64,000 bases of DNA. Source: Eledone cirrhosa (Eukaryota). This document shows, piece by piece, positions 9,291 to 62,340 of the stretch; positions within the stretch are counted from its first letter, which is position 1; every line of letters begins with the position of its first letter. The stretch covers positions 55,180,001 through 55,244,000 of the forward strand of contig OZ024745.1 in the NCBI GenBank assembly GCA_964016885.1, in the 5' to 3' direction. Made by a program: the position numbers and the translations under genes. Under the pieces are notes generated by a model that was not told the DNA's origin, ran no database searches, and saw nothing but the letters and a program-made list of their open reading frames with translations.

Positions 9291-10611
9291 TATATATATA
9301 TATATATATATATATATATATATATAAGTTATTCCCGGTTCAATCAGGGATAACCACAGTAAGTAAGGTACACGTGAGAAATCATCAGGAATCACCAGGC
9401 TCAGCTTCATGATGATTTCTCACGAATGAAACAGTTCAGGTCATTTAGAAGCTTTTCTATATTAACATATATGTATTTCTATATGTATATATATATATAT
9501 ATATATATATATATATATGTATATATATATATATATATATATATATATATATATATATATATACATATGTTTTCTCCGGATTTTAAAACACACTTTATTA
9601 TACGTTGAGCAATCTCCGACGTCGGTTGACTCCATCCAATGCAACTACTTAGTAACATTGGAATCCAAATTTACTAATTCTATATATATATATATATATA
9701 TATATATATATATATATATATATATATATATATATATATATATATATATATATATATATATGTATGTATATATATATATATGTATGTATATATATATATA
9801 TATATATATATATATATATATATATATATATATATATATATATATATATATATTGTAATCCACCAGGTTGTGGAAGGGCTGGTAACATTTTTAGGACTCA
9901 ATGTGACTTTGTAAGGATGTGGCTGCAGCGAGATTCGGCATTGTGACTATTAGTTTCTGTTGTAGGCGCTCAACACTTATGGTGTCCTCGAAGAAAATGC
10001 GTCCCGCTTCCAGAATCATTTACATATATGTGTTTGTGCACAGGACAATACAAACAAGTACTGAGACGTAGGTCGACAGTTAGTTCATTGTTTTATGAGC
10101 GTTTCTGAGGGTCAATTGATCGATTGTAGTTGTTAAGTTTCTAAATATTTGTAGTTTCGTGATCCCTTTTTAATCGGCTGTCTTCCTCAGAATCAATAAA
10201 ATGTGATTTTATTTGCTATATATATATATATATATATATATATATATATATATATATATATATATATATATATATATGTATTATGTATATATATATATAT
10301 ATGATCACCAATTCTAATTTATATAATATATATAGCGGCGATGAATTAGTTTAGCTAGGTTTTTTATATGAAATCGTGTGTCGAAACAAATATTGTTATA
10401 CTTGGGGAGGGTCATATTTGTGTAATATTGCCAGAATTAATAACAGAACACACTCACTGTTTGGTTGGTTTTCGCTTCTCGCTGTCTTTTATATCTGCGA
10501 TCTAACTTACTCGGTCCTCAGTGTTGCCATTGACTGACCGACGGTCAAAAATAATACAGTTACAATATAGACACAAACACATATATATAGTTTACATAAT
10601 TTACATAAATC

Positions 10612-10639
10612 TTTCGTTGCACATCTGCAACATCGTCAG
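10612..10639 (-). ncRNA. Hammerhead ribozyme core in PLE-1 left arm
   Basis: CTGACGA-t-gttgca gatg tgcaac-GAAA-gatt-TA; stem I weak. Confidence 0.6.
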
Positions 10640-10913
10640 TGGTGTTATATTTTTTCCTCCTGTTGTGTTGTATGTCTACACCATTTTTTTATTCAGTCTG
10701 TCTATATATTTATTTATTTATTTGCTTGTTTGTTTATTTTATTTTGTCTTCTTTGCGCATGCGTTTGCGTGTGTGTATAGTGTTATGTTTGCTGTGTGAC
10801 TAGTGTGTATAGTGTTGTGTCTGCTGGGTGACTAGTGTGTGTTTATGTGCCTGTTGTTATTGTGCTTGTGTATGTATTTATTTATCTTATTTTATTTTAT
10901 TTTATTTACTTAT

Positions 10914-11360
10914 TTATACTTCTCTTAGGTCAGTGTTGTTTGTTTGGGTGTTGTTGTTGTTCCACTCATTCTTTCTGTTTAGCTTTGGTCTTCTAATTTC
11001 TATTTCACTGGCCTCTCTGATTTGCCTATCTGCTGGGTCATTCCTATGTTTAGATATTATTCTAATTTCTATGTTGTCTATGTTACCGTCATGTTGTTGT
11101 CTAGCATGTTCGTATAGTACTGACCCGTTTTTTCGTCCTTTTAGTTCCCCCCAGGGTTGGTTTATCCTTTCACCTATGCTACGAGCTGTCTCACCTATGT
11201 ATGTTGTTATCATGTTTCTGCAAGTACCCTCTGTACATCTTATGCTATAGACTACGTTTCTAGTTTTACAGTTTATCCGGGGGTTCACCTTACATATGAT
11301 ACATTTCCTATTGGTACAGTGGGTTTTCTTAAAAGGGTAGGTTTTGCTGATCAGGGTTTT
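10914..11360 (-). pseudogene. PLE-1 Cys-rich linker + GIY-YIG endonuclease (left arm)
   Basis: NVVYSIRC...YIGETARSIGERINQ...EH...REASEI...PKLN. Confidence 0.9.
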
Positions 11361-58718: not shown

Positions 58719-60494
58719 ATTGATATAAGTAAGAGATTGCTTAATAAATGAGGAAATTGCATTTCAGAAATGATATTTGTTTAACTTCAATTTCACGAAG
58801 GATATTTAACTGAGAATTTTTCTGTCCATCAAATAATATTTTCTATACATTTATCTGACAACAACCAACTCTATGTTTAATATGATTATCTGAGAATATA
58901 TTGTTAACATCTCTGAAACATTTGATGGAGCAGAAATATGACTATACGTCCTGTAGGAAGTATAAGAATATTGTTTTCTCATCCTGTTTTGCTGTATATG
59001 TATTGTACTCAGATTATTAATACATATCTAGCGTTATAATTTTCACTATGATTTTTATTTGATTGAATGCTCTGTATGTGATTATATTGGTAAATAATTA
59101 TTTAAAAAATGAAAAAGGTATCTAAGGACGAAATTTATTTTCCTTAAAATGTTTAACATAATGTAAGTCGTAATTATAGTTAAATGCAAAATGTTTTAAT
59201 TTTATAATCGATAACTTATGTCGATTCCTCACTTTAAATCCCTGAATTTATAAGGATATGAACTTTCTTATTTCTACTTTACATTTTTACATCTAATAAC
59301 AATTATAAAAAATATATAGATTTCGGCCCTTCTATAGTAGGCCGTCAAATAAATGTCCATACAAATTATTATCTAGACGAACACTCGCAAAATCGTTGTC
59401 GAAATAATACAATGGTTATTATTAACATATGACCTATAATACAGAAAAAATATAGCATTTATTTTATCTTAAGTGTCAAATAGTTTGAAGTAATATAAAG
59501 GGAGAAGCAAATATTCTTTATATTCTACACGTAGAATCAAATTTTCACTGTAATAATGGCTTCCAGTGTTATTCTTCGGTCAGTGAACTACACATCAAAT
59601 TCTCATATGACCTACGCTGTAACAGGGAATTCATATAAACACAAGTAACAAACATATATACATTTAAAAAAGCAAAACAAAATGTTCCATGACGCCTGAA
59701 AAGTTAATGTCTTTTATTGGGTCCAAATAATCTTTTCAAACAAAGTGTATTTTCTGTAAGAGACTTATAGCTCCAAATAAGATTCAATAAAATATCAATA
59801 CAATCGTTTCTGACAGCGAACTGTCACCTTAACAATCTTCCAATTAGAGATGAATGTATACAATTCATAAACGTTGTAACACACTACATCAAAACTTTCG
59901 TTTAGGGAACGACGAAATACTCCGACCTATATAATTGTTATCACATAAAAAAATGTTTTAAGAAATTGTTTCTGGTGAAGTACGACGCGTCGTTTTCAAA
60001 TTAAGTTCAAGTCTTATTAATGCTACATTTATTGATGAGTAATTCTTAGATTTATTTTTAATTTTATATGATAATATTATTCCACGTATATGATTCACAA
60101 TACATATCAAGAATGAGATAGATGTTTACAAAATGGATTAGAACTGTTTACAGGGAGACGTATTTGCAGCAATCAATAGGAATATTTTAAAGTCAAAATA
60201 ATCGGTTTACATACGGTACAATTCCAGCAGCTTCAGTAACTAAAAACAGGCACCAGTCATGCGTAAGCACAAATGTATCTATACATATACAGGTTTTCAA
60301 CAGAAATGTATATATATATTTAATAAAATAACAGATTAAAGTTTAAGCAAAGAATCGCAGCTTTCTAGGGTTCTTATATATTTGATATATATTTATCCTT
60401 ATCAAGCCCTCTTTGGATTTTAGTCTTCAAATTTATTATTATTACTATATATATATATATATATATATATATATATATATATATATATATATAT

Positions 60495-60890
60495 CGCACT
60501 TCCACTCACTCACTCTCTGCTTCTTCCCTTCTTACTTCCTCCCGTTTGGCCTGTAGTGGGGTCTTTTCCTGCTCACACCTCACTCGCGTCGGACGGTCTG
60601 TAGTCTCACGCCCATAAAATCCACACAACTAAAGCTGATCGGACTGCCATGTGCTTGTTTTTTCCTATCTTTGCGTTGCTATCCTTCTATGTTTGTTTAC
60701 TTGTCTCGCTCGCTTTACGCGATTTACTTGTCCCAATAGCTGTATTTAACTATTGCTCGCACCAACTGGAGGTATATGATTTTTAAAGCGATGAAATACC
60801 AATGAAGGTTGGGAAATCACTGATGAAGGACTATTTTTATCATATGTAACCCATGTGCAACCAGGCAGTCTTCTTTCTTCTCATGTTTTA
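60495..60890 (+). mobile_element. Family D copy in (TA)n
   Basis: Homology with 7086-7700 (reverse complement) and 55230-55415. Confidence 0.7.
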
Positions 60891-60916
60891 TATATATATA
60901 TATATATATATACATA

Positions 60917-62340
60917 TAGGAACAAGTATGACCCCGACGACAGAGCTCAAGCCGTTTCGACGGCTATTCCTGCACTAAATAAGAATTTTTAGCCTGGTAA
61001 ATAAATAGCCGAACTTCTCAGGGGGTATTTCCTTATATGGGAAAATAGTAATTGTCAAGAGGACTGGTAAAAAATTTGGTGTAAAGACAGATAAATCTAT
61101 CATGGCATTTGGTGGGAGGTAGGGGTGGTTGAACTTGCAGGTAGAACAAAGAGGGAGTGGGGGAAACCTAGTCAAGCGTTGAAAGTGAAATCTATACAGC
61201 AGATTCTAAGGATAATGTATAAAAGGTTAAAAAAGTGTACTGGAGAAGAGGAGGGTGTGGAGTTGAAAGAATAGGTAAATCGAAAGGGAGCAAAAAAAAA
61301 ACCCATTAAAAGAATAAGGAAATAAATATATAAAAACAATTTCTGGTTACTACTCCATTTCTACAATCACCAAATTTCTCATTGGTATTGCTAAGCTCTA
61401 GAAAAGTTTAATAGGTGCAGAATGGTAAAAATACTAAATACGAGATTGTAGTGAACATTTTTTATAAAGCCGGCTTTACAGGGATCTAACACCACTGCTA
61501 TACATAGTTAGTAATCAGCCAATACTATTTTACAATGACAGGTTAATAAGTTGAGAACGAAAATACTAAAGTACTACTACAGAGATACTAATACAAAATA
61601 TTAATACAAAAATACTATTACAAAAATACTAATTAAAAAATACTATATCCCCCCCCCCCCCATCTGTTCCTAGTCCTTCCACCCCAAATCTCCTTCCTCA
61701 GTCTTTTTTTCACCTTTCGGCTACCCAGATACAGCCTATCGGTCCTCTGTAGCCTCAGTACCCCCTCCTCCCTAATTTTAAGATAGCATTTGCCGATTAC
61801 GCTTTTTATAGCAGATGTGTTTTTGTATTAATATGTTGTATTAGTATCTCTGTAGTAGTCTTTTAGTATTTTCGTTTTTTTTTTACTCCCTTTCGATTTA
61901 CCTATTCTTTCAACCCCCTCCTCTTCTCCAGTACACTTTTTTCGACCTTTTATACATTATCCTTAGAATCTGCTGTATAGATAGATTTCACCTTCAACGC
62001 TTGACTAGGTTTTTACCCACAACCTCTTTGTTCTACCGGCAAGTTCAGCCACCCTTACCTCCCACCAAATGCCATGATAGATTTATCTGTCTTTACAACA
62101 AATTTTTGACCAATCCTCTTAACAATTACTATCTTTCCATATAAGGAAATACCCCCTGAGAAGTTCGGCTATTTATTTACCAGACTAAAAATTCTTATTT
62201 AGTCCAGAAATAGTCGTCAAAACGGCTTGAGCTCTACCGTCGGGGTCATTCTTGTTCCTATTACCCACTCTACTACCCTAAGTATTAGTACTTTGGTGCG
62301 TTATGGTCCATCTGGTTCCTTACCACAATTCCTTAGTTAT
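60917..62340. mobile_element. Family E large palindrome: left arm 60917-61610, right arm 61820-62260 (lacking the equivalent of about 61300-61556), right tail 62261-62340
   Basis: Reverse-complement arms; HHR-like cccc-TGAGAA..cggctatt..aatagccg-tc-GAAA-cggc; (TA)n both sides. Confidence 0.88.

Follow-up and report, generated by a model that had tools for sequence, protein, structure and literature searches.

Paired fixed ends and a twin bulged hairpin in head-to-head Penelope-like insertions of Eledone cirrhosa

We analyzed a 64,000-nucleotide stretch of the Eledone cirrhosa genome (GenBank assembly GCA_964016885.1, contig OZ024745.1, positions 55,180,001 to 55,244,000 of the forward strand; hereafter the window, numbered from its first letter) and found Penelope-like elements (PLEs) that sort into six families, A–F, inserted head-to-head in (TA)n. 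The outer ends of these inverted pairs fall at two fixed points, a short site and a tail site, of which each is used by one arm; the one-sided tail is the stretch between the two points, and either arm can be the longer one. In the Hydra-type families, a hairpin that covaries begins 3–14 nt 3′ of the ends. Both points lie inside the leader or the start of the open reading frame (ORF), on TA shared with the target. We consider it probable, at roughly 60%, that each end of a cut (TA)n primes the reverse transcriptase (RT) at one of them, on a read-through RNA, with the hairpins positioning the starts in the Hydra-type families.

PLEs with an endonuclease (EN+ PLEs) are described as carrying an inverted 5′-truncated copy, partial tandems and a one-sided, "optional" tail of 30–40 bp, and as targeting (TA)n (PMC8557442, PMC3846280, PMC2377424). 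The origin of the inverted, tailed insertions is named as an open question in PMC8557442. For Poseidon_Ac (PAc) in vitro, both strands were reported to be cut at AT-rich DNA and two internal RT starts to bound the tail; template RNA 3′ of the starts is needed, and a dimer was predicted (PMC11167929). As excerpted, that work, the only biochemical study of the question, found the two start sites, not what sets them nor how they map to the arms.

Results

Two fixed ends per family

An earlier note on the window, made from its letters, had listed eight tails carried by one arm of such pairs and eight short arms ending at family-specific motifs joined directly to (TA)n. Locating insertions by self-comparison of the window (self-BLAST) as inverted pairs flanked by (TA)n, we recovered all eight tails to within a few nucleotides and found that all eight short ends join (TA)n at the motifs described. 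The short end at 15441 has its motif and its (TA)n join and lacks the inverted partner alongside, none being present in the self-BLAST. Four additional tails were detected, at 15886-15994, 48253-48345, 53820-53916 and 54777-54845; in other families tails reach ~135 nt, giving an overall range of 34 to ~135 nt. For every family, the top-scoring genomic copies repeat the tail and both ends seen in the window, and the tails are therefore element sequence rather than flank. Histograms of the ends of each family, a check of the kind that the note had proposed, were sharply bimodal: in family F, 14 ends fell at the short site, 14 at the tail site and none elsewhere. The note had mentioned a one-sided tail for Drosophila Penelope; it is described for PLEs generally and not for Drosophila alone (PMC8557442, PMC3846280, PMC11167929). 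Some ends abut (TTTA)n or (CT)n rather than (TA)n (loci L442, L172, L174 and L180).

One short end and one tail per pair

Pairs were defined by their junction in loci of the same genome, giving 179 inverted pairs and 163 after deduplication of sites. Among the 163, 149 combined a short end with a tail, 3 had two tails, 2 had two short ends and 9 were unclassifiable, many of the loci having been chosen for holding one end type.

Across the 3.0-Gb genome, short-end junctions of family A numbered 5,982 by exact pattern, and its tail or read-through copies 4,197. On one contig (C1), all 22 of the family A head-to-head neighbors within 6 kb paired a short end with a tail, among the first 100 short-end and 79 tail-type matches listed. 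Sixty family A copies selected for their short end were read by eye: a tail-type partner was present in 29 (two of them only 9–15 nt long), an interrupted partner in 6 and a short-ended partner in none. In L327 and L314 (near 5790-5955 of the oriented loci), the inverted partner arm is only 9–15 nt long and is made up of the family A tail end. When 464 kb of unselected DNA was scanned without regard to family, the TA-bounded inverted pairs comprised 30 that were asymmetric, 2 that were symmetric and 2 of other form; over all loci, the unique pairs numbered 237 asymmetric, 20 symmetric and 21 other, with the asymmetric ones in 37 clusters. The pairing of short end with tail is far from chance.

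The tail end lies inside the element

The earlier note had assigned one start to the end of the RNA and the other to an internal site reached by TA microhomology. The latter agrees with our data, the median microhomology at the short end being at least 2 nt in 22 of 27 families (6.3 expected) and at least 3 nt in 16 of 27 (3.1 expected); de novo clusters 22, 25 and 31 were excluded from these and the motif counts as simple-repeat or misaligned artefacts. The start at the RNA end was not supported. All six families have tandem copies that do not stop at the tail end and carry on into leader or ORF sequence of the same element: the read-through was found in 7 of 30 family A loci, in tandem copies of families C and F, in 30 loci each of families E and B (selected for read-through) and in 243 matches of family D. 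The tail consists of early ORF codons in family A and of leader upstream of the start codon in families B–F. Its end matches an alternating TA run by 2–6 nt at eight of eight sites, and family A has two alternative tail ends ~11 nt apart, each on TA. Taken with the upstream hammerhead-type cores described below, the read-through copies and the TA match make both ends look like internal, TA-paired starts. The same read-through and tail-end microhomology would not agree with a primer at the RNA 3′ terminus, as in L1-type twin priming.

Arm lengths and separate syntheses

The earlier note had also placed the tail on the ORF-bearing arm in two elements. This is correct for the insertions at 10335-13793 (which has ORF pieces on both arms) and 48734-53122 and fails as a rule: among 12 full-length copies, from which the longer tandem read-through copy L353 was excluded, the ORF arm ends at the tail site in five and at the short site in seven. 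Leaving the tail itself out of the comparison, we found the tail arm to be the longer one in 32 of the 149 short-plus-tail pairs and the short-ended arm in 53, with arms equal within 20 nt in the other 64; for the 19 pairs with an arm of at least 1 kb, the tail arm was longer in 7 and the short-ended arm in 12. In the 53 pairs, each arm has sequence absent from the other, and neither can have been copied from the other by folding back. The proposal that two separate syntheses start from the two target ends and meet head-to-head is supported by these pairs. The inversion junctions of the 149 pairs, taken from BLAST borders, overlap by at least 2 nt in 46, are flush in 32 and are gapped in 71.

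Over 107 pairs, the median difference was 1.7% between the two arms of an insertion and 5.1% between those and the arms of other insertions. Derivation from one source element would fit this, and gene conversion or fold-back could contribute; the likeness would not separate one RNA molecule from two. Inversion points cluster, at approximately −270 to −282 from the tail end in family C, −226 to −233 in F, ~−143 in B and ~−135 in E (L032-L060, L206-L221, L172-L200 and the family E mini pairs), producing many near-equal-armed mini elements. The clusters may be RT stops at RNA structure.

A twin bulged hairpin in the Hydra-type families

On comparison of families C and E, a hairpin was noticed 3′ of both sites, laid out as RYTC, an inner helix, a 2-nt bulge and GARY. 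In Hydra-type families it follows the short site and often occurs again after the tail site; its outer stem varies as ACTC/GAGT, GCTC/GAGC and GTTC/GAAC, and its 5′ arm stays 3–14 nt 3′ of the element end while the loop length varies widely. Of 28 further families, 13 carry the hairpin behind the short site, where shuffles predict 0.19 and two upstream control windows gave 0; the motif had been widened after inspection of the de novo families, and 7 of the 28 pass under the earlier wording.

Marine-metagenome relatives (78 loci) served as an independent test set. Excluding leaders shorter than 150 nt (9 of 51) left 42 with enough sequence, of which 19 contain two hairpins 55–83 nt apart and 10 contain one; the antisense and mid-ORF controls each gave 1 of 42. 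Of the copy ends, 18 were usable once a single tandem read-through row and the 10 rows lying no more than 2 nt from a contig end had been set aside; 13 of these 18 fell within −12 to +4 nt of a hairpin start. In 82 instances, the inner pairs, which were not imposed by the search, were complementary in 99, 77 and 68% versus 77, 40 and 40% in shuffled sequence, the fourth pair showing no such excess; the metagenome sequences are mutually related, so these are not counts of independent events. TAT or ATA precedes the hairpin in 80% of the instances versus 23% in the background.

Family E is the only one in which the strict motif passes at the tail site, doing so in 20 of 23 read-through copies. 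A noncoding tandem unit of 470 bp (L351, L352, L353 and L402) has the hairpin behind both ends, together with a minimal hammerhead-type core and PLE-like insertion. No relevant Rfam family matched the twin hairpin. The tails of some hairpin-less families (de novo clusters 17, 19 and 21) share another short motif, ATGCTT...A, possibly the start signal of another clade.

Family identity

The family C copy L357 has a 749-amino-acid open frame with RT and GIY-YIG-type motifs; in A, B, D and E these motifs lie in broken frames, and in F the RT was seen and an endonuclease (EN) was not. Pfam searches with nine window ORFs gave only a weak RVT_1 match and no GIY-YIG, and the EN assignment is by motifs read by eye. 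The six families have the read-through junctions of partial tandems forming pseudo-long terminal repeats (pLTRs), and the inverted 5′-truncated copy with a one-sided tail, a trait of EN+ PLEs, is present in 149 of the 163 pairs. An RWK-type motif near the N terminus reads RWR in C, E and B and RWK in D; DKG is replaced by DKT in C, D and E and was not found in the broken B frames; and a CxCx5C linker precedes the C-terminal EN in B, C, D and E. CCHH was not evident by eye in the Hydra-type EN translations. By the motifs that the excerpts of PMC8557442 list for the Hydra clade, families B–E appear to be Hydra-type. The family A linker, Cx4CxxC, fits the CX2-5CxxC that precedes the C-terminal EN in Neptune/Nematis, either of which may be its clade. 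Naiad, with its N-terminal EN, does not fit, as the EN lies downstream of the RT in A–E.

Hammerhead-type cores (CTGANGA...GAAA) occur upstream of the short site in A, B, C and D, and a variant core occurs in E; none was found in F. The cores lie 30–250 nt upstream of the short site, and a hammerhead cut was rejected as the origin of the element end. Rfam gave no hammerhead match: the window held only hairpin- or microsatellite-driven matches below the gathering score and the eight metagenome loci held none. No relatives were found in viral contigs. The family A ORF has a long asparagine-rich insert before the RT (L023, L024 and L351-L353) and one stop codon common to a subset of copies; an insert of this kind before the RT has been described for rotifer PLEs.

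Insertions in the window

Family A insertions lie at 10335-13793 and 54777-55209. In the first, the tail-bearing arm (10335..12496, minus strand) contains an RT fragment of a PLE with a C-terminal EN and the Cx4CxxC linker; its tail (10335..10389, minus) is made up of early codons of its own ORF and stops on element TA, with the ATG ~18 nt ahead of the short site. The short-ended arm (12498..13793, plus) holds a GIY-YIG ORF piece at 12666-13268 and has 4 nt in common with (TA)n at the join. The second insertion, a family A-related pair (54777..55209), has a tail arm on the minus strand whose tail (54777-54845) stops on the alternative TA, ~11 nt short of the main tail end, and its other arm is interrupted. 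Family B, of the Hydra type, forms a mini head-to-head pair at 16361..16598 with its short end at 16361 (minus) and its tail at 16533-16598 (plus). The hairpin motif after its short site, ACTC...GAGT at 16537..16556 (plus), is a variant that fails the strict 2-nt-bulge test.

The main insertion of family C (Hydra-type) joins a short-ended arm (48734..50101, minus) to a tail arm (50096..53122, plus) with a 5′-truncated RT and GIY-YIG ORF that extends to 51775. The tail, 53033-53122, is leader upstream of the ORF start, as seen in tandem copies, and hairpin 1 (ACTC-CAG...CTG-TT-GAGT; 53040..53058, plus) stands 7 nt past the short site. A subfamily of C contributes a pair at 53637..53916 (short end 53636, minus; tail 53820-53916, plus) and two partnerless arms: a tail arm at 48253..48553 (minus; tail 48253-48345, hairpin 48313-48332) and a short-ended arm at 15229..15441 (plus). 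Family D (Hydra-type) is present as a tail arm at 47301..47774 (minus; tail 47301-47369) and a short-ended arm at 53916..54312 (plus), a mirror of 47370-47774. The region 47301-54312 is a nested cluster in which the family D arms, the one at 47301..47774 likely being the outer member, surround two family C pairs and a lone C arm, apparently through insertion into an internal TA run. A subfamily D pair at 54334..54660 has a shortened tail (54334-54379, minus), a short end at 54660 (plus) and a hammerhead-type motif upstream of the short site.

Family E (Hydra-type) forms a mini pair at 30880..31069 (tail 30880-30956, minus; short end 31067, plus; hairpin ~30928-30951, minus) and a longer pair at 60916..62337 (short end 60917, minus; tail 62262-62337, plus). 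The family F pair at 38614..39587 has its tail at 38614-38647 (minus) and its short end at ~39582 (plus) and is without the RYTC/GARY hairpin. A further TA-bounded inverted pair, 15886..16317, has a 109-nt one-sided extension (tail 15886-15994).

Other elements in the window include Pif1-type helicase fragments (Pfam PF21530) at 40726-42729 on the minus strand, which are Helitron-like; a region at 23003-24365 in which a GC-rich inverted repeat (23003-23500) adjoins RT fragments of another PLE-like element, without (TA)n borders; and, at 27547-28101 on the minus strand, the GIY-YIG-type ORF end of a further Hydra-type element, broken by a TA run.

Discussion

Priming of both target ends on a read-through RNA could proceed as follows. 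The endonuclease would cut both strands of (TA)n, and two protein units would bind hairpin 1 and hairpin 2, or other signals in families A and F. Each target 3′-OH would then pair with the 2–6 nt of TA just 5′ of its signal; both complementary DNAs (cDNAs) would extend toward the RNA 5′ end, stop independently and be joined head-to-head. Occupation of both sites on one ribonucleoprotein (RNP) would yield one short and one tailed end, and the template would be a tandem or circular transcript reaching past the tail end. Listed RNA records include none covering 52700-53122 of the window, which is uninformative on expression. A more specific version, which we put forward tentatively and at slightly less than even odds, is that the hairpins form a twin RNA element, a doubled template-boundary signal like that of telomerase, which would let a dimeric RT–EN complex prime both (TA)n ends on one RNA. 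Among retroelement enzymes, the reverse transcriptases of PLEs are the most closely related to telomerase.

Several observations weigh against priming of both target ends at hairpin-positioned starts, in addition to the widened motif wording and the relatedness of the metagenome sequences. The hairpin is absent from families A (0 of 46 copies) and F (0 of 16), which still obey the end rule, and from 13 of the 42 metagenome leaders; 5 of the 18 metagenome copy ends fall elsewhere than near a hairpin. At the tail site, the strict motif fails in family C (0 of 15) and in the noncoding unit, each time by one pair, and the hairpin is degenerate in D and missing in B (0 of 26). Families B and D hold another GAGY-RCTY copy 80–101 nt beyond the tail end, near which, where a third end site was predicted for D, only 7 of 92 exact matches run into a TA repeat; such a downstream copy would mark a minor end at most. 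On their own the hairpins show no unusual stability, with non-significant folding-energy z-scores of −1.4 to +0.8 in the 42-nt windows after each site. No recognizable inverted partner was found for 25 of the 60 short-ended family A copies, and the 64 pairs with arms equal within 20 nt are also predicted by fold-back. Finally, according to the excerpts of PMC11167929, RT initiates where the template has no homology to the cut DNA, and the start site was reported not to differ between strands.

The alternative that survives best, although we regard it as unlikely, is that the ends are made on DNA, with the GIY-YIG EN resolving a tandem or inverted DNA intermediate at two TA sites and the hairpins being read as single-stranded DNA or cruciform. 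Both ends do lie on TA, the preferred target of the endonuclease, and covariation fits RNA or single-stranded DNA alike; EN-mediated resolution was proposed for the tail in PMC8557442, and the Drosophila virilis EN needs tail sequence to recognize plasmid DNA, as related in PMC11167929. However, RT starts on RNA in vitro fall at the two tail borders (PMC11167929), the independent 5′ truncation of both arms and the tail-only partner arms in L327 and L314 fit two short cDNAs, and resolution offers no simple reason for one end of each type.

We find it quite improbable that a single priming event is followed by the first cDNA snapping back at a hairpin and copying itself, with one end trimmed. 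The equal-armed pairs, the clustered inversion points and the greater likeness of an insertion's own arms would all suit such a process, and self-priming was proposed for rotifer PLEs (PMC3846280). As a general route it is nevertheless refuted by the 53 pairs in which the short-ended arm has extra 5′ sequence and the other arm has the tail, and equal-length arms occur in only 2 of 42 pairs in family A.

Very doubtful, too, is the version of the earlier note, an L1-type twin priming with one start at a real RNA 3′ end located at the tail end, and a second one, internal, that relies on TA microhomology. The sequence data would also allow an RNA that is cut, or terminates, at the tail end; RNA-seq read ends were seen at the two sites in PMC11167929, and family B lacks a hairpin after the tail site. 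Against this, the element runs on past the tail end in all six families, within the ORF in A; TA microhomology is as extensive at the tail end as at the short end; conservation extends to the second hairpin, which lies beyond the tail end; the tail end of family A has two TA alternatives; and hammerhead-type motifs lie upstream of both sites. That TA microhomology alone sets the ends and the nearby hairpin serves another role (translation, promoter or RNP assembly) is highly improbable, for although families A and F have fixed ends without it, a longer TA tract ~45 nt past the family D tail end leads into a TA repeat in only 7 of 92 exact matches, the hairpin 5′ arm keeps its distance from the end despite the varying loop, and microhomology cannot force one end of each type.

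Published EN+ PLEs share with these insertions the inverted 5′-truncated copy, the tandems, the (TA)n targets and a one-sided tail continuing the ORF start; here, in contrast to the published descriptions as excerpted, the tails span 34 to ~135 nt, the short-plus-tail rule is near-strict and applies to either arm, and TA microhomology is present at both ends. PAc belongs to a different clade and likewise has two internal starts bounding the tail and is cut into both strands at AT-rich sites by its own protein, but its starts are reported as nonhomologous to the cut DNA, and the excerpts of PMC11167929 describe no twin RNA element or one-start-per-arm rule. With the Hydra clade of PMC8557442, families B–E share RW[RK], DKT (in C, D and E), the CxCx5C linker, short ORFs, hammerhead-type motifs and (TA)n; the excerpted description of the clade makes no mention of a twin bulged hairpin.

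L1 twin priming starts at the RNA 3′ end and resembles the present case in that both target ends prime, microhomology is found at the ends and two cDNAs are joined at the inversion point (PMC2912911). The L1 insertions differ from those described here, whose two sites are fixed positions within the element and whose arms both carry the same stretch of sequence. In L1, the RNA 3′ end and a variable internal site give nonoverlapping pieces. The metazoan non-LTR retrozymes (bioRxiv 10.64898/2026.07.22.740005) match the 470-bp hammerhead-type unit inserting in PLE-like fashion; the excerpted preprint text is without the words "hairpin", "stem" and "tail", whereas the unit here keeps the hairpin after both ends.

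The one-sided tail and its reading as the gap between two internal RT starts are already known (PMC11167929, in excerpt); what appears to be new in these known elements is the pairing rule and the hairpin, not the tail. In the literature searched we found neither the rule of one short end with one tail, nor TA pairing at both starts, nor the twin hairpin, and older papers on Penelope structure and the supplements of PMC8557442 may bear on them.

The near-strict pairing, the TA pairing at both starts and the hairpin behind each start make the question of the tail accessible to mutagenesis. The hairpin is also a short cis-signal by which nonautonomous passengers can be spotted. If the twin RNA element is real, it would explain why PLE insertions lie head-to-head and carry a tail on one side, and the start position would be programmable by relocating a 25-nt hairpin.

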